A stretch of 32,000 nt of DNA from Candidatus Absconditicoccus praedator (GTDB lineage Bacteria > Patescibacteriota > Gracilibacteria > Absconditabacterales > Absconditicoccaceae): contig NZ_CP054059.1 of the NCBI RefSeq assembly GCF_021057185.1, forward strand, positions 420,001 to 452,000. The letters are read 5' to 3'. Below, piece by piece: positions 1 to 28,874 of the stretch. Under the pieces are notes generated by a model. That model worked only from the letters and a program-made list of their open reading frames with translations. It searched no databases and was not told the DNA's origin. The number at the start of each line of letters is the position of its first letter. The first letter of the stretch is position 1. The position numbers and the translations under genes were made by a program.

Positions 1-881
1 TTCCAAGCTTCGAAAAGTTTTTCTTCATTTAACCAATCAAGTCACCTTCTTTTCTCCAAAAACTCTAAATTTTCTGTCCAAGGAAAGTTTATAGCTATAT
101 GATTCCAAAACTCTCTCCAAGCTATTTCAGACAAAAAAACATCATTATCACAATTTGATTTTTGGATTGCATCATAAACTTGCCTAATAGACACCAGACC
201 AAATCTGACATAAGGAGACAACTTGCTTGTTCAGTCTTGAAACGGATAGTTTCTGGTATTTTCATAATTACAAAAATCAAAATTTTTTAATATATTGTCT
301 CATTCATGCACATCCCACAAATTCTCAAAATCAAACTTATCCAAGTAATCAACAACAGTAGACAAGCTAGTAGACATTGTAGAAATTTTTTTGTCTATAT
401 TTAAGATTCAAGAGAACTCAAAAACATTTTTCCATTGTTTATAAAAAGGAGTAAACACTTTTCTTACAGGCACATTTTCAGGCTTTACCAAAAAAAAGTC
501 TTCAAACTGACAAAATTCAGCATTAATAGATTTTTTAATATTTGTATCCCTAGTAGTTCAGTATGGTCAATAAGATCTATTTGTGTATACTGCATCTATA
601 TTGTTTTCTTTTACTATTTGGGGCAACAATTTTTGTGGATCTCCAACTGCTGAATATAGTCTTGATCATTTTTCTTGCAGCTGAGAATCAAGCCTAATAA
701 GAGCATCCTTTAGAAATCATAGTCTTTTGTCGTTTTGTGGAAATCTATCTAGAATTTTTTCATCAAAAATAAAAACTGGCAATACATTTTCTCAGTCTTC
801 AATTGCATTCCATAATCATACATTATCAAAAACCCTAAGGTCTTGTCTAAACCAAAATAAAATATTTTTAAACTTTCACAT
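1..881 (-). CDS. phr: Deoxyribodipyrimidine photolyase / cryptochrome family (N-terminal part; the 3' end runs off the window start)
   Basis: Table-25 translation from ATG at 881-879 gives MGKFKNILFWFRQDLRVFDN, then KVFTPFYKQWK, DGTSKLSPYVRFG and EIAWREFWNH. These are classic photolyase motifs. The in-frame TGA at 231-233 falls on the conserved Gly of G-T-S-x-LSPY. Confidence 0.85.
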
Positions 882-2592: not shown

Positions 2593-3852
2593 ATGAATTT
2601 ACCAGAAAGTTTTTCTTGTAAGTGAGTTATGAAAGAATTGAAAAATCATGGTATAGAAAAACAACAAAGAAAACAAATAATGAAAGCTCTTGATTCTTAT
2701 AGAAGAAAATCTATTTTAGTCGAAGAAAAAAAGCTAAAAGAGAAATACTCAGAAATTATACAAATTCAGGAGTCATTTATGGATGAGTTTGAAAAAATAT
2801 TCCAAGAACAAGAATGTTATGAACTTTTGAATTTTTTTGAAATTCTTATGAACTTTTTCAACAACAAATTTTCTACAATGGAATTAGAAGTTTATGAAGT
2901 CACAGAAAATATTAATTGAATAAATAATTTAAGGTTCTGCAAGCCTAGAAAAACCTCTCACAAAAAACAAGATAAAACCACAGACGAAATAAGCTACTTA
3001 GAAGAAAAAGCTTTGAATTCTGAAAACAAAGAACTGATATACAAAATTACTGATATATCTAAAAAACAAGAAGATATAGCTTGAATAAAAATTCAAACCA
3101 ATTATAAAGAAACTTTTTTGATTACCATAATTTTATCAGAGAACTTAAATTCAAGCAACTATCAAACTTTTTTGGAAGAATTTGTAAGTTTAAAAAATAT
3201 TTTTGAGGTTAGTAGATTGAGTTTTTTGTTGGAAGAAAAAATTGCTGCTCTTAATAGTTCATTTAAAGATAGGTTAACTGGACTATTTAATAAAGCATAT
3301 TTAGACACAAAGCTTGATGAAACATGATGGAGTGCTATTTATATTGATATAGATAGCTTTAAAGAGCTAAATGATACTTATGGACATTGTGTATGAGATT
3401 ATGCATTACAGCTTCTTTCAAAAGCATTAAAAGAATCAGTAAGATATGAGGATAAAACTTGCCGTTTATATTGAGATGAATTTATGATTCTTGTAAATAC
3501 TTATAATGGCGAAGAAGTGAAAAAAATTTTAGAAAGAATTAGGCAAAAAGTAAATGGGATATCTTTTGAAACTGAAAACAAAAAAAACAAACAAATAGAA
3601 ACAGTAGATTTATCAGCTTCTTTATGAATTGCTATTTGAGACAACAAGAAGACAGTTAAAGAACTCTTAAAAGAGTCTGATGCCTTAATGCTTGGAAGTA
3701 AAACCACCTCTTGAAGTCTTTATAGGCTTCGCCAACAATTAGAGTCTTGCAAAGAATCTGACAGAGAAGAAGTTGTTGAGAATTTATTGGATGTAATATC
3801 TTACAAACAGTTGGTAAGAATTCTTGCAAAAAAAATTTTACAAAAAGAATAG
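2593..3852 (+). CDS. GGDEF-domain protein (putative diguanylate cyclase) with YGDEF motif, RxxD I-site and an N-terminal domain of unknown function
   Basis: The ORF runs from ATG 2593 (alternative ATG 2629) to TAG 3850-3852. Motifs are DRLTGLFNKAYLD, IYIDIDSFKELNDTYGHCVGDYAL, RYED (3442-3453) and RLYGDEFMILV (YGDEF at 3469-3483, with Gly encoded by TGA). Confidence 0.85.
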
Positions 3853-7096: not shown

Positions 7097-9193
7097 CTAT
7101 TGCTTTTGTAGGTAAAAGTCTTCTTCATTGTATCACCTAACATTACTTGTGATAATTTTAGTTCATTCTTCAATAGGAGTTTTTAGCAAAACTCACTTTC
7201 ATACAACCTGTTGTATTTCTACTTCTTTCTGCCTAAGTTCACCATTCTCGTATATATTTATATTGGCTTTGTTGTCTTGTACATTGCTTAAAATATTTAC
7301 TGGAATTATAGGATGTTTCATATCTACAAAAACTAATACAGTGACAAAATCTCAAAGTCTTGGGATTTCTTCCTGCAGTCTAACTCTAGCAGAGTAGTTC
7401 AGATTTTCATCTGCAGTTTGAGATATAGAGTAAAGTTTTCATATATATGATTCTCCTTGGTGCAGAATCTCTACATCCATTCACTCTCTAACATAGTCCA
7501 TTTCTCTTTCTCTAAAAGAAATTCTTATTTCATTTTCTGCTTTTCATGAAATCTCAAACAAAATATCTCACTCAGATATTTCTTGTCATTCATTTACATG
7601 AACCTGTCATATCTTACCATCTATTGGTGCTTGTACTGTTAGGTCATTTACTGCATCTGTTGCTTCTTGATACTCTATTCTTGCTGAATTCATAGCAGCT
7701 CTGGCTGCTTCTATATCCAGGTCCAAGTCTTCTTGGGCTTGTTGATAGTCATCTTCTGCTCATTCCAGTCATATTTGCGCATTTTCTATACTATTTTCCA
7801 AAGATTCCATTGTATATTCTTTGTCTTGTTTGGCTTGTTCAAGGTCGTCTATTGCATTTTCAAGAGCAATTTCAGCATTTTCAAGAGCTTCTTTTTGCTG
7901 AAGCAAAAGTCTTTCGTATTCTACCCCCAAATCATAGTCTGCTTGGTCTAGCTCATCTTGGAGTATACCTTTTTCTGACTCCATTCTTTCTATATCTCTT
8001 TTTAGAATTCTTTCTTCTCTAATATAATTTTCAAAAAATGAATCTACCTCATCTCTTAGGGTTCTTGTTTCTGATAGCGTTGAGCCAATACTTGTTCTAT
8101 ATCATCCAAACTGTTCTTTGTATCCATCAATTTCTGTTTGAGTAAAAGAAGATGATGTGATAGAGTTTCTCAAAGTTGATTCTATCTCATCTAGCATATC
8201 TCTGGTTTGCACTAATCAATCAACAAGATCTTGCACTTTTCATTGAATATTTTCTTGAGATAGATCATCAAAATCTTGTTCTTCAAGGTTTTCATACTTT
8301 CTTATGCTTTCTCTAAGTTTGTTTTCAGCTCTTATTCTTGTACTATTGCTTTTGGCTCACAAGTAAGTATCAAACCTATTGTTGTAATTTCTATTTTCAC
8401 TTGTCACACCTAATAGCTTGTCTGCTTCATAATTGATTTCATCCACCAAACTTAAATAATCGTCATAAACATTTTCTATGTTTGTTGAAAATGAGTTGAT
8501 TTGTTGCTGATTATTTGTTTCCAAACTTTCAAGTTCATCTCTTGCGTTTTCAAGTTCTTTTTCCAAATTTTCTAGTTCTCTTCTAGCAATCGAACTATCT
8601 GCTTGCATATCTCTAAGAGATCTTTCGTATTCTAACTGTTCTACTTGTTTTTCAAAATCTTGTTGAGTTATTTCATAGTCAAGTTTAGCCTGTCTCTTTG
8701 CTCTTTCCAAAGACCTAATGTTCTTTTCTAAGTCTGACTGTGTTTGTCTTTTTTCTAAATCTGCAGACTGATAGTCAAGTTCTGACTGTTCTATTCACCT
8801 TTGTAAGTCTCTTAGGTTTTTGTCCAGTTGTCTTTGGGTTTGTTCATATTCAATTTCTGCCTGTCTTAGGTTGTTTTGAGCAAGTTGTTGTTGTAATCTA
8901 TAATTTGCAACAGAGTCTTCCATTTCCAACAAGGTTTGTCATTGTGTTACTTGATCTCATTCTTTGACATTGATTGAAGATACCCTACCTGCTACTTGAG
9001 ATCATTTTTCAATATCTTTTGCTGACTGCACCCTTCCATTTTTTTTGAAATATGCTTCAGAATCAAAATCTTGTATTTTTTGTGTATCTATACTATAAGG
9101 TCTTTGTTCTTCTTCTATGTCTTCTTCTCAATCTTCACAGCCATACAATCACAATACAGTAACTAATAAAATTGCCAAAATAGCTTTTCTCAT
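7097..9193 (-). CDS. HlyD/MFP-type periplasmic adaptor lipoprotein with a very long coiled-coil insert (698 aa)
   Basis: ATG at 9193-9191 and TAG at 7099-7097. The signal peptide with lipobox is MRKAILAILLVTVLGLYGC. Lipoyl half-motifs are GRVSSINVKEGDQVTQGQTLLEMED and LTVQAPIDGKIGQVHVNEGQEISEGDILFEI. They are separated by about 420 aa rich in E, Q, L and R with heptad character. The gene lies 25 nt upstream of the RND gene. Confidence 0.85.
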
Positions 9194-9550: not shown

Positions 9551-9595
9551 GAGTATAAATAGTACAACTAGTATAACTAGTATAACTAATAATGC
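9551..9595. repeat. Tandem 9-bp repeats (TAGTATAAC-like, about 5 units) in the divergent abrB-like/queA intergenic region
   Basis: The units are gagtataaa, tagtacaac, tagtataac, tagtataac and taataatgc, read directly from the sequence. The array starts 13 nt upstream of the abrB-like ATG. Confidence 0.6.
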
Positions 9596-9687
9596 AACTT
9601 AATTTTTGAGAAAATTATTTAATTCTTTCTTTAAAAATTGGAGCAAATAATTATTATCCTATGGTTTATCCAATTTTTTGTTTGAAA

Positions 9688-10842
9688 ATGTATAAAACCA
9701 AAGATTATGATTATGATCTGCCTGAAAGTCTTATTGCACAAAATCCTGTACAGCCTCCGGACAACTCTAAGCTTTTGGTTTGTCAAAAACAATCAAGCTG
9801 ATACAAATACATGCAGGGTTTATTCAAAGACATTTCAAACTTTCTTAGCAATGAAAGTGTTCTTTTTTTCAACAACTCAAAAGTGGTAAAAGCACAAGTT
9901 TTTCTTCAGCAAAAAGAAATTGTTGATAAAAACAACAAACACAAGTTTTTGAAATCAGGACAAGTGTTTTTCTTGGATAATCTGTGAGACAACAGATTTG
10001 AGGCGATGGTTTTCCCAGGAGACAAATTTATTGTATGAGCCAAAATCTATATAGAAGAGGATATTTTTATAATGGTTGAAAAAATAACCATAGCCTGAAG
10101 AATTCTAAGACTGCACGGGATGAGTATACATGATTTTCTTGAAAAACACTGAACTATTCCTCTGCCTCCTTATATACAAGAAAACTCAAACAAAAAAGAA
10201 CTGTATCAAACAAATTTTGCGCAAATAGATGGCTCTACAGCAGCTCCAACTGCCTGATTGCATTTTACAAACAATCTTATGTCAACTCTTCAATCTCAAT
10301 GAATTATTTTTGAATACCTAACATTGCATATATGAATATGAACATTCAAACCTATTATTACAGAAGACATTAGAGAGTATGATATTCATCAAGAAAAAGT
10401 AATCATAGACAAGCAAATTTTTGAAAAAATAGCAGATTATTATTATTGCTGAAAAGATATTGTATGAGTAGGGACAACTTCTACAAGGGTGTTGGAAAGC
10501 CTGCCATATTTATGGGATGAGGTTAGAAAGAATTTCAAATTTGATCAACAAACTATCAAATTCCGAGATTTTGTCAAAAAACAGTCAAATAATGAAATTC
10601 AAGGCTTGAAGTTTAACGAAAATCAAATTGAATTTTATACCAAAGTTTTTATATATCCCTGATTTGAATTCAAAATAGTACAAAACCTAATAACAAATTT
10701 TCATCTACCTCAAAGTAGTTTGTTGGCTTTGGTGGCATGATTTATGGGGTATGAAAACTTGTTTGATGCATACCATTTTGCTATCCAAGAAGAGTATAGA
10801 TTTTTTAGTTTTGGGGATGCCATGTTTATCAAGAATAAGTAA
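9688..10842 (+). CDS. queA: S-adenosylmethionine:tRNA ribosyltransferase-isomerase
   Basis: ATG 9688, TAA 10840-10842. Motifs are [69 protein letters not shown] and [19 protein letters not shown] checked all in-frame triplets. Confidence 0.92.
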
Positions 10843-11838: not shown

Positions 11839-14343
11839 ATGGAAACTAATCTTACCATGCACCACACGAACAACTCCTTAGATACAAATACAGATCTTTT
11901 TAGAAGTTTTTTTGATGCATTAAAAATTTTTGAAAAAATAGCAAACCAACATTTTAGTAAAAGCCAACTTCAAGAAATCAAAAATCCAAACACAAAAGAA
12001 TTTTTAAGACTTTTCATGTTATTTAAAAAAAAATACAATACCGACATCTCTTCTCTTGTTGATAACATTAGCAATGTTAATGAAAATGATCTATTAAATT
12101 TATTGGAATTTTTATCAAGAACAATCCAGGAAACAAATGATTATGAAGTGCAATGATTTATACAACATATGAAAAACGAACTAGAGGAGAGTTTATATCA
12201 TGAAAGCATTGGTAATGTAAACGAAGAGATCAAAACAAAAACTATAGAGAACATAATACATATTCAAAACCAAATAAAAAAATTTTTAGAAGAAAAATGA
12301 ATTGATTTCACTTCAATAGAGGAAGATTTAGACAGCAAAACATATAAACTATGTAAATACGTATTAGAAAACGACAACAAAAAAATAGTTAAGCTGATAA
12401 ATGAAATTTTTGATATGCTTTGAATAAAAAATGATACTGTTTTACAAAAAAACTTTTTAACTATAGTCAATGATTTTTTACAAGATCAAGCAAACAGTAC
12501 AAACTTAGAAAAAACTGAAAACCTTACAGTTTTGAGATTTATTTTTGTACAAATATCTAAATCCCAAATAGCAAACTCTTTAGAAGAAGCTTATAAAAAT
12601 ATCTTTAAAGAAGATGAAAGCTTACTAAATTTTAGCAGACAAGATTATTATTCCAACCAAAAAAAGGCTATTTTTCTACTAAACAACCCAAAGAAAATCT
12701 TAAGTTCTTCAGAAAAAAAATCTAACATACTATATGTTAGCAACAAAGAAAACATTTACTACAAAGTTTTCAACAACTGGGATTTAGCTCTAAGTTTTTT
12801 AAAATTAAATATTTTTGATGTGTTTAAAAATCAGCAAACAGACAAAATTACACTAGCCAACAAAATCAAAGAAGGGTTAGACTCTAAATGAGTATATTCA
12901 GAAAGATTGGAATTTTTTGCTGAGGACCTATGAGAGTCATGTTTTTTTAACCTTAAGATTTCAAAAAAACATGATAACAATAATTGATGAGAGCTTATTT
13001 CAATAATTTTAACAAAAGACAATAGCACAAAAAAAACCCAAAACACAAAAGAAACGACAACTACTACTGCCAACAACTTACCACAACAAACTAATGAAGG
13101 CGAGGATTTTCTTGATAGCAGTTGAGTTTTAAGATTTGAAAGCCTGGAAGAGGGCGAGTCTACCAAACAGGTTGCTGTTATGAAGATAAGTGACTTTTCT
13201 ATAATAAACAAAAAATATTGAGTAAAATTGTGAAATATAATACTTCAAAGAATATCAAAAACAATACAAAATTATGTTAAAAAATTTAATTATCTTGATG
13301 CTAAAAAATTGTCCACCCTAGAGTTTGCTATTATAAACAAACAAAACAGCAGTGAAACTATAGAAGATCTATTTGAAGAAATGCTAGGAGCCAAAAATCC
13401 TACTGAATGAAAGTTTTATATTAGAGAAATTTGAGAGGATATAGAAATAGATTTTAGTTGTTGAATTTTCAACAACGAAGAAAACTTAGATGTATTAGAA
13501 GCATTTGAAAAAGCACTTATGGCAATGTACCATGCCAAAAAAAACTGATCTTGAGCTTATTATTCTCCACAAATAGAACAACAAGAAAAATCTAATATAG
13601 AAAATTATTTGAACTGGAAAAGAGTAATAAGACATGCCCTAAAACAAAACAACATCACACCATTTTTACAATGAATATACGATGCACAAGATAATAATAT
13701 GCTACAGTATGAAGCTTTGATGAGACTGTATAACACTGAAACATGAGAAATTTGTTCTCCATGACAATTTTTAGACTATCTACCTATATTTGACAAAAAA
13801 CATAAAGCTTTTATGCAGGTAGTTATCAAGGCAATTAATTTTATCAAAAATGATAATAGAAAAAAAATTTTTTTGAATTTCACATCAGAACAGCTTAAAA
13901 ATTTACAAATTTACCAAATAATATCTAATCTTTTAGTATCACACAAAGTTAAATGAGAAAATGTAACAATAGAAATCCCCGAAGAAACTCTTGAGCAAAA
14001 TCATGATTATATCGACAAGTACAAAAAACTTGGCATAAAAATAGCAATAGATGATTTTGGTAAATGATACTCCAATCTAAAAAAACTATTTGAACTTTCA
14101 GACAAAATAGATTATCTAAAAGTAGACGGGTCTATAATAAGATGAATTGCCAATGACAAGTCAAAACAGGAAACCCTAAATTTAATAATGTTTTTTTCTA
14201 AAAATCACGATTTTCAAATAATTGTAGAATTCATAGAAACACAAGAAGATTATCAATACCTCAAAAATCTATGAGTTAGATATTTTCAATGATTTTTATT
14301 CTCAAAACCCAAACCGATTGAGCAAAGATTCATACAAAATTAG
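11839..14343 (+). CDS. Degenerate-GGDEF + EAL domain protein (putative c-di-GMP phosphodiesterase, 834 aa) with an N-terminal region of about 430 aa of unknown function
   Basis: ATG 11839, TAG 14341-14343, with all triplets checked. EAL motifs are QYEALMRL (EAL at 13711-13719), FLNFTSEQL, IEIPEE, IAIDDFGKGYSNL, YLKVDGSIIRG, VEFIETQED and YFQGFLFSKPKP. The GGDEF-like fold upstream is VAVMKISDFSIINKKYGVKLGNIIL...STLEFAIIN, with no GG[DE]EF. Confidence 0.88.
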
Positions 14344-22942: not shown

Positions 22943-23650
22943 ATGAATACAAGAAGAGAACAAATAGGGCCTATACATATTGATGAATGAACAGCTTGGC
23001 AGAAAGAAGTTTTAACAAAACTACAAGAATCACTTAGATGAAATGAACAGATCACTGCTTGAGACATAGAATCACGATATTTTAATTATATCAAAATAAT
23101 TATTAAGCAAAAAATCAACAAAATAAAAGAAACATTTGAATGAAAAAAAGGAATAACTTTTAAAAATCATGACCAAAATATTACTTTAATGAATAGTGCA
23201 GCATATTGATTGAATACTGAAGGATTATGAGAAGACGAGAAATATCAAGTAGCATTTGCATTTGAACAAATAAAAACACTTCCTTCCCAAGAAGCAATTT
23301 CTAGAGCTGAAGAATATATAAAAGAACAAGCTAAGCTTGGTAGCAATGAGCCTTTACCCTATCAAAGCAAAGAAATAGTAATGCAAGCACTAGAATTATG
23401 ATTATTAGTTGAACAAATAGACAAATTAAACACTAAGACACACCTAGAAGCATATAAAGTTGGTATTAAATGACTTGTAAATCAAGAACATACAGACATA
23501 GAAAATATTCGTCAAGCCTTGCTGCATGCCTGGGCTCGCAAGGATATAGATAATCTTCCTTGTGATAAAAAACAAGTTGCATTAGATGCATTAAAAGAAT
23601 GATATGAGCCAATCCAAGCTTATGCTAAATGAATCAACTCAAGAAAGTAA
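22943..23650 (+). CDS. Hypothetical protein (235 aa)
   Basis: ATG 22943, TAA 23648-23650. It is a table-25 ORF with many in-frame TGA codons and is followed by a terminator. No motif recognised. Confidence 0.55.
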
Positions 23651-23704: not shown

Positions 23705-26782
<3,078 letters not shown>

Positions 26783-27092
26783 ATTAATTTAATTTAAAAA
26801 TATAAACCCTTTCCCTTTTTTTAAGGATTTGATAAATCTTTTCAAGTTTTTATAGAAAACAATAAACCTTATCTAAACTTATATTAGGCTTTAGAGATTA
26901 TATTAAGTTAAAACCTTATGCTACCAAACCAAAATTTATTATAAAATAAATCACATCTTTTTAAGAAAACAAAATATTTGTTTGTTATTGAAATACAATA
27001 AAATTATCTTTACAAATAATTTTCATTTGAAAACACTGCCAAAATATTTATAAATATTTTTATTTTTATTTATTATATTAAACTTTTTTAGA

Positions 27093-28874
27093 ATGCTTAG
27101 AACACACAACTGTTGACAACTAAACGAAACAAATATTGAGGAAGAAGTAAAACTATGCTGATGGGTATCAAACAGAAGAGACCATGGAGGAATTATTTTT
27201 ATCGACCTTAGGGACAGATACTGAATTACTCAGATTGTTTTTGACCCAGAACATGACAAGAATAGTTGGGGAGTTGCTGACTCAGTCAGACCAGAATATG
27301 CTATCCAAATAAACTGAAAAGTAAGATACAGACCACAATGACAAGAAAACCCAAAACTTAATACTTGAAAAATTGAAATTATATGCAATGACATACAAAT
27401 ACTTTCAAAGTCAAAAACGCCACCTTTTGAAATATCCGATTATAGCGATATCAGCGAAGATGTAAGATACAAACAAAGATATCTAGATCTTAGAAGAAAC
27501 AGTGTGCTTGAAAATATAAAATTTAGAGCAAAAATGAATCATTTTGTAAGAAACTGGTTTGTACAAAAAGATTTTTTGGAAGTACAAACACCACTTTTCA
27601 CTGTAAGTTCACCAGAATGAGCAAGAGACTACATAGTACCTTCTCGTTTGCACCCTGGTAAATTTTATGCACTACCTCAAGCCCCACAAATATACAAACA
27701 GCTTTTGATGGTAGGAGGAGTAGACAAATATTTTCAGATAGCACCATGTTTTCGTGATGAAGACCCAAGAGCAGACAGACACAGTTGTGAGTTTTATCAA
27801 ATAGATGCTGAATTAAGTTTTGTAGAACAAGAAGATGTACTACAAATATGTGAAGATTTTATCAAAGATTTGATAAACAATATTGCACCTCACAAAACAA
27901 TAAAAGACAACAAAATTCATAGGCTTACTTATCAAGAAGCAATAGAATATTATGGGTCAGATAAACCTGACATCAGGTATGATATGAAAATACACGATCT
28001 AAGTGATATCTTCTCAAATACAGAATTTAGTGTATTCAAACAAGCTTTGGAAAAAAACTGAGTAATAAAAGCTTTAAAATTTGAAAAAACTCTAACTAGA
28101 AAAGAAATAGACGAAATCACCCAAGTAGCTCAGGATAATGGAGCAAAATGACTTGCTTATATAATATATGAAGAAGATGGCCCAAGATCTCCTATACTCA
28201 AATTTTTCTCTGATGAAGAACTACAAAAACTTGAAGAAACTATGCAGCCACAAACTTGAGAAATGATTTTCTTTTGAGCAGACACAAGAAAAATAGTAAA
28301 TAAAGTACTTGGGACAGTAAGAACAGATCTGGCAAATAAATATTTAAGTTTGGATGATAGTGAGTTGGCTTTTTGTTGGATTACAGACTTTCCATTTTAT
28401 GAGCTTGATGAAGACACTTGAAAAATAGACTTTTCTCACAACCCTTTTGGTATGCCTCAATGAGGAATGGAAGCCTTGGAAAATCAGGATCCACTAGAAA
28501 TAAAAGCTTACCAATATGATTTGGCATGTAATGGTTATGAACTACTATCTTGAGCTATAAGAAACCACAGACCTGATATATTAGTAAAAGCTTTTGAACT
28601 TACTGGAAAAGATGAAGATTATGTAAAAGAAAAATTTGCAGTATTATTTGAGGCATTCCAGTATGGCCCACCTCCACATGGATGATTTGCTTTTGGTTTT
28701 GACAGATTAATGATGCTTTTGGTGGACAGAGAAAATATAAGAGATATTTATGCTTTCCCAAAATCTGGTAAAGCTCAAGATATGATGGTATGAGCTCCTT
28801 CAAAAATAGATGAAAATCTACTTAAAGAACTAAAACTTACAGATATTATCAAAAAATATTACAGGGATAATTAA
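27093..28874 (+). CDS. aspS: Aspartyl-tRNA synthetase (bacterial type, 593 aa)
   Basis: ATG 27093, TAA 28872-28874. Motifs are [27 protein letters not shown] (Gly is TGA at 27618-27620), [31 protein letters not shown] and [15 protein letters not shown] (Gly is TGA at 28683-28685). Confidence 0.95.

Follow-up and report, generated by a model that had tools for sequence, protein, structure and literature searches.

A candidate RND efflux adaptor with a predicted long, capped hairpin in Candidatus Absconditicoccus praedator

A 32,000-nucleotide stretch of the genome of Candidatus Absconditicoccus praedator (contig NZ_CP054059.1, positions 420,001 to 452,000; referred to here as the window) encodes a protein, P0001, which is very probably an RND adaptor whose single long hairpin bears a cap. 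The host, a CPR bacterium of the Absconditabacteria/Gracilibacteria class, has a single membrane and a peptidoglycan wall and translates TGA as Gly, and P0001 would act there as the lipid-anchored periplasmic adaptor of a two-component RND efflux pump. As to what the hairpin is for, we lean slightly towards an oligomer of P0001 that builds a duct or stalk across the wall zone independently of TolC.

The adaptor gene was recovered as a single open reading frame (ORF) of 698 aa under both table 25 and table 4, with 23 in-frame TGA codons, and a table 11 reading of the region was rejected, since it broke the ORFs into fragments. When the 23 TGA sites were compared with three standard-code homologs, Gly occupied 30 of the 64 aligned cells, against a Gly background of 4.7%, and Trp occupied none. 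Because the sites aligned to Gly, and in no case to Trp, code 4 (TGA = Trp) was dropped for code 25, and the alignment supports the reading of TGA in P0001 as Gly. The length of the protein is not an assembly artefact, as a 77%-identical homolog of 697 aa lies on an independent contig and the homolog of Ca. Vampirococcus lugosii has 705 aa. The features of the gene and of its operon are collected in Table 1.

Table 1. Predicted features of the adaptor operon (coordinates are positions in the window)
Feature	Coordinates	Strand	Basis
Adaptor gene P0001	7097..9193	-	698 aa under code 25; coordinates include the stop codon
Signal peptide and lipobox (residues 1-19, LYGC; Cys19)	9137..9193	-	Sequence; conservation of Cys19
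N-terminal strands (membrane-proximal, beta-barrel) and lipoyl half 1, residues 31-97	8903..9103	-	AF2 strands 31-92, pLDDT 91-95; Biotin_lipoyl_2
Ascending hairpin arm, residues 98-261 (helices 98-194, 202-261)	8411..8902	-	AF2 DSSP, a/d heptads, arm-length covariation
Conserved tip module, residues 262-351 (90 residues)	8141..8410	-	Conservation, AF2
Descending hairpin arm, residues 352-516	7646..8140	-	AF2 DSSP (one continuous helix); heptads
Lipoyl half 2, beta-barrel, membrane-proximal domain, residues 517-698	7100..7645	-	PF13533, PF13437, PF16576; pLDDT 87-96; Foldseek
AbrB/MazE/SpoVT-type small DNA-binding protein P0002, 105 aa	9221..9538	-	TIGR01439, PF04014; first operon gene, 27 nt upstream of adaptor
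RND permease P0003, 1070 aa	3859..7071	-	PF00873 ACR_tran, 468 bits over 17-1044; 25 nt downstream of adaptor

All four adaptor domains (membrane-proximal, beta-barrel, lipoyl, and alpha-hairpin) are kept in P0001. The TIGR01730 (RND_mfp) profile scored 102.5 bits against a cut-off of 94.9, with the match extending to profile position 311 of 322, and PF13437 (67.8 bits; cut-off, 22.2) and PF16576 (34.4 bits; cut-off, 30) also scored above their thresholds. In the Pfam searches, Biotin_lipoyl_2 matched twice, at residues ~61-94 and 519-548, corresponding to a split lipoyl domain, and HlyD_3 covered residues 519-609. The helices of the AF2 model were confined to residues 98-516, between the two lipoyl halves, and the beta-barrel and membrane-proximal domain were modeled as strands at 31-57 and 554-697 with pLDDT values of 89-96. 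Foldseek matched the model to AcrA, MacA, MexA, and EmrA at E values of 1e-12 to 1e-9 (1.6e-11 for EmrA), as well as to CusB, BesA, and Spr0693, with alignments covering full-length AcrA, MexA, and MacA. An earlier sequence-only reading of the window had proposed an operon of AbrB, adaptor, and RND genes in which the adaptor is a lipoprotein of the HlyD/MFP type; this is borne out by TIGR01730, Pfam, and Foldseek, and the neighboring genes are those named there. Membership among the EmrA-type adaptors was rejected: TIGR00998 gave 57.6 bits against a cut-off of 390.8, and P0001 instead combines a membrane-proximal domain with a lipobox and an RND partner.

An N-terminal lipoprotein anchor is predicted from the sequence, with acylation at Cys19. 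This residue is at least 90% conserved among 93 homologs, and genes for Lgt and LspA were found in the genome. The Tyr at position -2 of the lipobox is non-canonical.

The helical insert between the lipoyl halves had been put at ~420 aa, and the count agrees with this value, positions 7643-8914 corresponding to residues 94-517, or 424 aa. P0001 is proline-free from residue 33 to 522, and the insert has a classical heptad core in which the a/d positions are 71-81% hydrophobic and the other positions 3-27%. DSSP assigned helices 98-194, 202-261, 283-304, 313-342, and 352-516 in the AF2 model, so that the arms are near-equal in length, with 164 residues up and 165 residues down. The expectation of a single extended antiparallel hairpin, and not of several short bundles, was upheld by the prediction of the down-arm as one 165-residue helix and by the covariation of the arm lengths. 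Over 89 homologs, up-arm and down-arm lengths were correlated with r = 0.81 and a slope of 0.83, and the clade of P0001 has 32 and 31 additional residues on the two arms. The dimensions given earlier, arms of ~200 residues and a hairpin of ~30 nm, were too large: the predicted arms of ~164-165 residues correspond to ~25 nm, a value calculated from residue counts at 1.5 Å per residue, as in the EmrA crystal structure, and not measured on the model. Since pLDDT is 56-72 in the proximal halves of the arms and the pTM of the full-length model is 0.43, the exact register and the straightness of the hairpin are uncertain.

It could be argued that the extra length is a near-neutral expansion of a coiled coil in AT-rich, fast-evolving genomes and that only the membrane-near domains matter, as in any Gram-positive adaptor. 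Heptad insertions are tolerated by coiled coils, and the weak sequence conservation of the arms (22% mean column identity) would fit such a history, as would their pLDDT values. Length, however, is tightly held across the class: among the 89 homologs the median arm lengths are 134 residues up and 148 residues down, and the down-minus-up difference is 13-14 residues in 49 of them. Insertions are moreover matched on both arms, the module at the tip is conserved, and 1-Mb genomes under strong reductive pressure still keep two such genes. We therefore consider neutral expansion highly improbable.

The module at the tip is the best-conserved part of the P0001 insert in the homolog alignment. It is laid out as a loop (LGVT..N.NYNN.F.TYLGAK), helix 283-304, helix 313-342, and a second loop (NS..S..F.Q(T/S).ID), and its length stays steady at ~86 residues in the 89 homologs while the arms vary. 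Its pLDDT was 83-97 in the full AF2 model, and when folded in isolation it reached a pLDDT of 93.6 and a pTM of 0.84. Together with the ends of the arms, the module is predicted by the model to form a four-helix bundle that caps the hairpin. The "polar break" at 8330-8410, previously taken for the hairpin tip, does fall at the tip, where it corresponds to residues 262-288 and the most conserved loop, but it is not a bare turn and belongs to the 90-residue four-helix cap module.

Searches with the tip module returned only subthreshold coiled-coil noise in Pfam, no match below an E value of 0.1 among PDB sequences, and none at E ≤ 1e-3 with Foldseek. VIA-align found generic four-helix bundles only, the best being the MFN2 helical bundle with a Z score of 14.3, which is in the range that the tool flags as common for helical bundles. 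On these sequence and model comparisons, we would claim no specific relative of the module and none in Pfam or the PDB. The RLS motif (R-x3-L-x6-S), which serves TolC docking, was not found anywhere in P0001 and was present in the central region of only 3 of 93 family members.

The genome is closed, 1.13 Mb in size, and rated 100% complete. That the operon contains no outer-membrane factor (OMF) gene had been noted before, and the same holds for the entire closed genome, in which PF02321 (OEP/TolC) gave no match above the cut-off and neither Omp85 nor secretin was found. The only OEP/TolC match, of 16.5 bits and inside the coiled coil of a paralogous adaptor, was below the cut-off; we attribute it to coiled-coil background and not to a fused segment of TolC. 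The genome encodes four Mur ligases. The paralogous adaptor belongs to a second adaptor-RND operon, and a long adaptor accompanies each of the genome's two RND pumps (698 and 633 aa).

With no OMF encoded and a conserved tip module standing in place of the TolC-binding RLS turn, the cap might dock on an unrecognised outer component, such as a pore of the S-layer or fibrous envelope or a prey-contact structure in an epibiotic predator, to give a three-part conduit, trans-envelope or cell-to-cell, whose third partner is not TolC. Some relatives, Vampirococcus among them, do live as epibiotic predators; their envelope is complex and "fibrous," with numerous unknown surface proteins (PMC8080830). 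No candidate partner gene was conserved beside the operon in the ~1.5-kb flanks examined, however, and many class members that use the standard code have the family as well; we regard this purely speculative idea as improbable.

According to the reading that we favor, the four canonical domains of P0001 would clasp the RND pump. Taking the hexameric tubes of MacA, AcrA, and Spr0693 as a guide, we infer that several copies would assemble on the RND trimer into a long helical duct or stalk, through which substrates might be carried from the pump across the gap that separates the membrane from the wall or surface layers, the job of TolC in double-membrane bacteria. The cap could serve as a distal gate, or an outer envelope layer could be its partner by contact. 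The tube is an analogy, since the predicted structure is that of a monomer only. If every protomer carries a four-helix cap, closure of a 12-helix barrel of the MacA type might be hindered at the tip, and tight lateral packing could be opposed by the strongly acidic arms (net charges of -16 and -29). In a heptad test for barrel-type packing, which would be marked by extra hydrophobic positions, only a/d positions were enriched and no extra hydrophobic seam was seen, so that the sequence by itself speaks neither for nor against a tube. RND proteins of groundwater Gracilibacteria went undetected in one metaproteome (PMC11452946), which we counted against the duct or stalk reading.

Plain two-stranded heptads of the a/d type with no barrel seam would also suit a hairpin that works as a stalk, ruler, or anchor rather than as a duct. 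Its four-helix cap would position or tether the pump relative to peptidoglycan or a surface layer, or would fix the membrane-to-wall distance, and substrates would leave at the top of the pump. Acidic arm surfaces are suited to a solvent-exposed rod, and the conservation of the cap above the rest of the insert suggests a specific binding partner. We nonetheless think this explanation unlikely, because hairpins build a tube above the pump in all solved adaptors of the fold, including the OMF-less Gram-positive Spr0693, and because the strict linkage of adaptor and RND genes argues for a role in transport. The duct reading can also be given a more specific, class-wide form, which we put forward tentatively and hold to be somewhat doubtful. 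Six hairpins would form a free-standing helical exit duct of 20-25 nm that has no TolC-like partner, and a ring of six lineage-specific four-helix bundles would close or anchor its distal end. The duct would span the wall and the surface layers, making the system a self-sufficient "two-component tripartite pump," and in epibiotic predators it might open at the prey interface.

In all 11 homolog loci the adaptor gene was followed by an RND gene, and in 5 of the 11 it was immediately preceded by an AbrB-like ORF. In the window, this upstream protein (P0002) matched TIGR01439 with 42.3 bits (cut-off, 28.3) and PF04014 with 31.5 bits (cut-off, 24.7) and is built of a swapped-hairpin domain at residues 17-53 followed by a charged helical tail. 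It is a plausible, putative local regulator of the operon, which would then be under AbrB-type regulation. A role as MazE-type antitoxin of a type II toxin-antitoxin system was rejected, since no toxin-size small ORF is adjacent: the adaptor gene lies downstream and a divergent QueA gene upstream, across an intergenic region of 53 bp. A promoter and terminator scan yielded counts equal to those of shuffled sequence.

The adaptor family was present in 139 of the 151 sampled genomes of the GTDB class, the best-scoring members having a median length of 636 aa. A long adaptor is thus the norm in the class, and P0001 is not exceptional there; adaptors of 500-650 aa are also common in other Patescibacteria. 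The sequence-only reading had let its case depend on whether similarly long adaptors are routine in many bacteria, and the answer is divided: they are routine within its own lineage, but not among characterised bacteria. In the literature on CPR and Patescibacteria adaptors, we found no paper describing a long capped hairpin. Class genomes, though only ~1 Mb in size, often have two or more adaptor copies.

The usual view of adaptor hairpins is that they serve to dock on TolC and that their length fits the Gram-negative periplasm. Here, an almost uncultured, reduced-genome class without an outer membrane keeps adaptors with predicted hairpins of ~20-25 nm and a conserved cap. If the duct reading is true, these adaptors would represent a third independent way for RND substrates to cross the wall without TolC, beside the coiled-coil tube of MmpL5 and the MacA-like nanotubes of Gram-positive bacteria, as well as a molecular ruler for the CPR cell envelope. 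Since P0001 is soluble save for its lipid anchor, the length of the rod and its oligomeric state are directly testable.

AcrA and MexA, the top Foldseek matches, share with P0001 the lipoprotein anchor, the four domains, and the position of the gene directly upstream of an AcrB-family permease. Their hairpins are 5.8 nm (AcrA) and 4.7 nm (MexA) long (PMC4158417), compared to ~25 nm predicted for P0001, which further differs in its predicted four-helix-bundle cap in place of a tight turn, in having no RLS motif and no OMF in the genome, and in its single-membrane host. The longest solved adaptor hairpin is that of Aquifex aeolicus EmrA (PDB 4TKO), which measures 127 Å, has helices of 84 and 80 residues, and was described as "exceptionally long" (PMC4158417). 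As in P0001, the heptads of EmrA are broken by stutters (PMC4158417), whereas its arms are only about half as long, it has no membrane-proximal domain and a TM-helix anchor, and it partners with an MFS pump and docks to TolC via an RLS tip.

Closer in cellular setting are the MacA-like Spr0693 and YknX (Bacillus), which like P0001 are OMF-free adaptors in single-membrane cells. Spr0693 of Streptococcus pneumoniae forms a hexameric nanotube, which has been proposed to lead substrates into the wall zone (PMC5768738). In contrast to P0001, these adaptors work with an ABC (MacB-like) partner, and they have a helical barrel only 56 Å high and no tip module. In MmpL4 and MmpL5, it is a long antiparallel coiled coil of the RND pump itself that builds an OMF-independent tube of ~13 nm across the wall (PMC12501195). 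That coiled coil is inserted in the permease, with six helices per trimer, and is not a separate adaptor; it is not homologous to the coil of P0001, and the MmpS adaptor is unrelated. A helical bundle is also found in CusB, whose helical domain departs from the two-helix hairpin (PMC4446572). There, however, a short hairpin folds back over its whole length to make a small bundle, while the bundle predicted for P0001 caps only the distal end of a very long one.

Translation with table 11 split the region into short open reading frames (ORFs); with tables 25 or 4, in which TGA is a sense codon, long genes extended across the window. The ORF of P0001, the adaptor under study, occupies exactly 7097-9193 (-), encodes 698 residues and contains 23 in-frame TGA codons. 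In three homologs whose genomes have no in-frame TGA, glycine occupied 30 of the 64 cells aligned with these codons, against a glycine background of 4.7%, and tryptophan occupied none. We thus conclude that code 25 is the right reading, and code 4 (TGA as Trp) was ruled out for P0001. The genome is closed, 1.13 Mb in size with 28% GC, and rated 100% complete. Among named homologs the closest comes from Ca. Vampirococcus lugosii (705 aa, "HlyD family", 39% identity), and a 697-aa protein from an independent contig is 77% identical to P0001. A further ORF in the window, of 834 aa at 11839-14343 (+), likewise has 23 in-frame TGA codons.

That P0001 belongs to the RND adaptor family is established. 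It scored 102.5 bits with NCBIfam TIGR01730 (RND_mfp; cut-off 94.9), and Foldseek matched its AF2 model to AcrA, MacA, EmrA, MexA, ZneB, BesA, CusB and Spr0693 (E-values of 1e-12 to 1e-8). Its N-terminal signal peptide terminates in LYGC; across 93 homologs, conservation of Cys19 is at least 90%, and genes for Lgt and LspA are encoded in the genome. The sequence-only reading had described an adaptor with an insert of about 420 aa between its lipoyl halves, and this observation is real: the single ORF carries an insert of 424 aa (residues 94-517). Its view of the kind of system also held, and its arm length, tip and presumed rarity needed revision.

Features of P0001, its operon and the paralogous operon
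Feature	Position	Detail	Source
Lipoyl halves	residues ~61-94 and 519-548		Pfam
HlyD_3 / HlyD_D23	residues 499-609		Pfam
Ascending arm (up-arm)	helices 98-194 and 202-261	164 residues	AF2
Loop	residues 262-282		AF2
Tip helices	283-304 and 313-342		AF2
Descending arm (down-arm)	352-516	single unbroken helix, 165 residues	AF2
AcrB-family permease	25 nt after P0001	1070 aa	
AbrB/SpoVT-type gene	27 nt before P0001	105 aa	
Paralogous operon	G000:C1:994873-1000212	P0016 (633 aa, same tip motif), then 1106-aa RND permease	

Proline is absent from residues 33 to 522. Within the insert, heptad positions a and d are 71-81% hydrophobic and the other positions 3-27%, with register shifts every few heptads and a mean period of ~3.6. 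In the AF2 model (93-sequence alignment, mean pLDDT 82.6) the two arms are equal in length, shorter than the ~200 residues each proposed earlier, and the insert therefore fits a single antiparallel hairpin. Confidence was high for the membrane-near domains and residues 210-400. Since the proximal arm halves reached a pLDDT of only 56-72 and the full-length pTM was 0.43, the hairpin topology needed an independent test. Among 89 homologs carrying both anchor motifs, up-arms of 113-166 residues (median 134) and down-arms of 127-179 residues (median 148) varied together (Pearson r = 0.81, slope 0.83), p-values for this relation overstating independence because the homologs are related. The tip module, of 73-100 residues (median 86), showed no such relation to the up-arm (r = -0.04). 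Arms in the P0001 clade measure 166 and 179 residues, +32/+31 relative to the modal 134/148, and those of two further long homologs are extended by +21/+28 and +16/+20. Both arms were thus lengthened in step, as a single hairpin requires, in at least three separate events visible among the homologs.

The mid-insert stretch NRNYNNRFDTYLGAKSNSTR, previously read as a polar break that looked like the hairpin tip, lies within the best-conserved block of the entire insert. The block is shared with P0016, the paralogous adaptor of the same genome, and its consensus reads D-x-(I/L)-L-G-V-T-x2-N-x-N-x-N-x-F-E-x-Y-L-G-A-K and, in its later part, L-x-N-S-x2-S-x2-F-x-Q-(S/T)-x-(I/L)-D. Folded alone, from an alignment of only 13 sequences, residues 205-405 gave a confident model (pLDDT 93.6, pTM 0.84) of four helices of 56, 23, 27 and 53 residues. 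Structural searches returned only generic antiparallel four-helix bundles, namely the mitofusin helical bundle (Z 14.3), and designed bundles and talin rod domains (Z ~10-11); Foldseek gave no match at E<=1e-3, and Pfam and PDB sequence searches gave none. The conserved block, the confident model and the lack of specific relatives together indicate that the hairpin ends in a predicted lineage-specific four-helix cap and not in a tight turn. P0001 lacks the RLS motif, the TolC-docking signature of tripartite-pump adaptors, and 3 of 93 family members have it.

The genome encodes exactly two RND permeases, each with a long adaptor directly upstream (698 and 633 aa). At all 11 homolog loci the adaptor is followed downstream by an RND gene, and five of them have an AbrB-like gene upstream, in recoded and standard-code genomes. 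The paralogous operon has a 191-aa ORF without Pfam match in place of the AbrB gene. Since no toxin gene adjoins the AbrB-type gene, its product is more plausibly a local regulator than an antitoxin.

Next to the RND gene on its downstream side, the opposite strand encodes a 419-aa protein (2593-3852 (+)) with a GGDEF diguanylate-cyclase domain (104 bits); c-di-GMP signalling is notable for a 1.1-Mb CPR genome. Residues 36-413 of the 416-aa QueA (9592-10842 (+)) match the whole 322-position Pfam profile and so include ~55 extra residues as insertions. In the 1025-aa leucyl-tRNA synthetase (23705-26782 (-), code 25), a NUDIX hydrolase domain (residues 382-500, Pfam 50.6 bits) is inserted just past the editing domain, a fusion unusual for this enzyme. 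ORFs of 235 aa (22943-23650 (+)) and 151 aa (26939-27394 (-)) have no Pfam match.

Searches of the closed genome, whose positive controls worked, found no OEP/TolC, Omp85/BamA or secretin, and four Mur ligases are encoded. This gene content indicates a cell walled with peptidoglycan and lacking an outer membrane. A faint OEP/TolC profile match inside the coiled coil of P0016 (residues 106-189; L001 889-2790 (-); 16 bits, cut-off 22) is probably coiled-coil background.

When 1.84 billion cluster representatives were searched exhaustively with a profile, 1,776 matched at E<=1e-30; the best 150 of these were almost all end-to-end, and their median length was 636 aa. Tryptophan exceeded 2% in 105 of 154 analysed sequences, most of which were also glycine-depleted, a pattern that marks genomes with TGA=Gly when code 4 is used to translate them. 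Named members come from Ca. Gracilibacteria and Vampirococcus. Within the same GTDB class, 139 of 151 sampled genomes had a match, many full-profile in ORFs of 580-780 aa, in TGA-recoded and standard-code genomes alike. Across the phylum, 75 of 201 genomes matched (ORFs of 345-724 aa, many 500-650 aa); outside the class most matches covered lipoyl and barrel parts only, and a few families also spanned the centre. For other phyla, a limited and biased set of 25 adaptor loci gave ORFs of 331-592 aa and none above 600 (Proteobacteria mostly 383-450, Clostridia 373-491, Saccharibacteria 474-536 aa). In this class, extreme length combined with a cap is therefore the norm and not peculiar to P0001, contrary to the rarity first supposed, and the class forms the upper end of a wider long-hairpin tendency in CPR and some other lineages. 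As leads only, language-model look-alikes comprised adaptor clusters of 504-782 aa from Altimarinota (Gracilibacteria), Minisyncoccota, Peregrinibacteriota, Chloroflexota, Bacillota, Actinomycetota and Armatimonadota. The family members P0064 (824 aa), P0088 (834 aa), P0089 (818 aa) and P0076 (796 aa), matching the whole profile, are 100-140 residues longer than P0001.

The best-supported reading, by analogy, is that the adaptor hairpins build a long helical duct or stalk replacing TolC. P0001 hairpins would assemble above the pump trimer, and the resulting structure would stand in for TolC in a walled, single-membrane cell, where the cap might serve as a distal gate or contact an outer layer. 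Precedents are the hexameric nanotube of Spr0693 from a Gram-positive bacterium (PMC5768738) and MmpL5, whose coiled coil forms a 13-nm tube (PMC12501195). The insert heptads are of plain a/d type and both arms are acidic, which leaves room for the hairpin being a stalk or anchor.

Hairpins measure 58 Å in AcrA, 47 in MexA, 52 in ZneB and 67 in MacA, and that of aaEmrA, with helices of 84 and 80 residues and called "exceptionally long" by its authors, measures 127 Å (PMC4158417). At the aaEmrA rise per residue, ~165 residues would give P0001 a hairpin of ~25 nm, below the ~30 nm first estimated, and residue counts suggest ~20-22 nm for the modal family member. In the modelled Spr0693 assembly the barrel is 56 Å and the apex 154 Å above the membrane (PMC5768738); on a similar base, the P0001 cap would lie roughly 30-35 nm above it. 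We found no description of a capped long-hairpin RND adaptor in the literature searched, and as far as that literature shows it is an undescribed variant within a known family. In length, P0001-type capped adaptors go well beyond every characterised adaptor.
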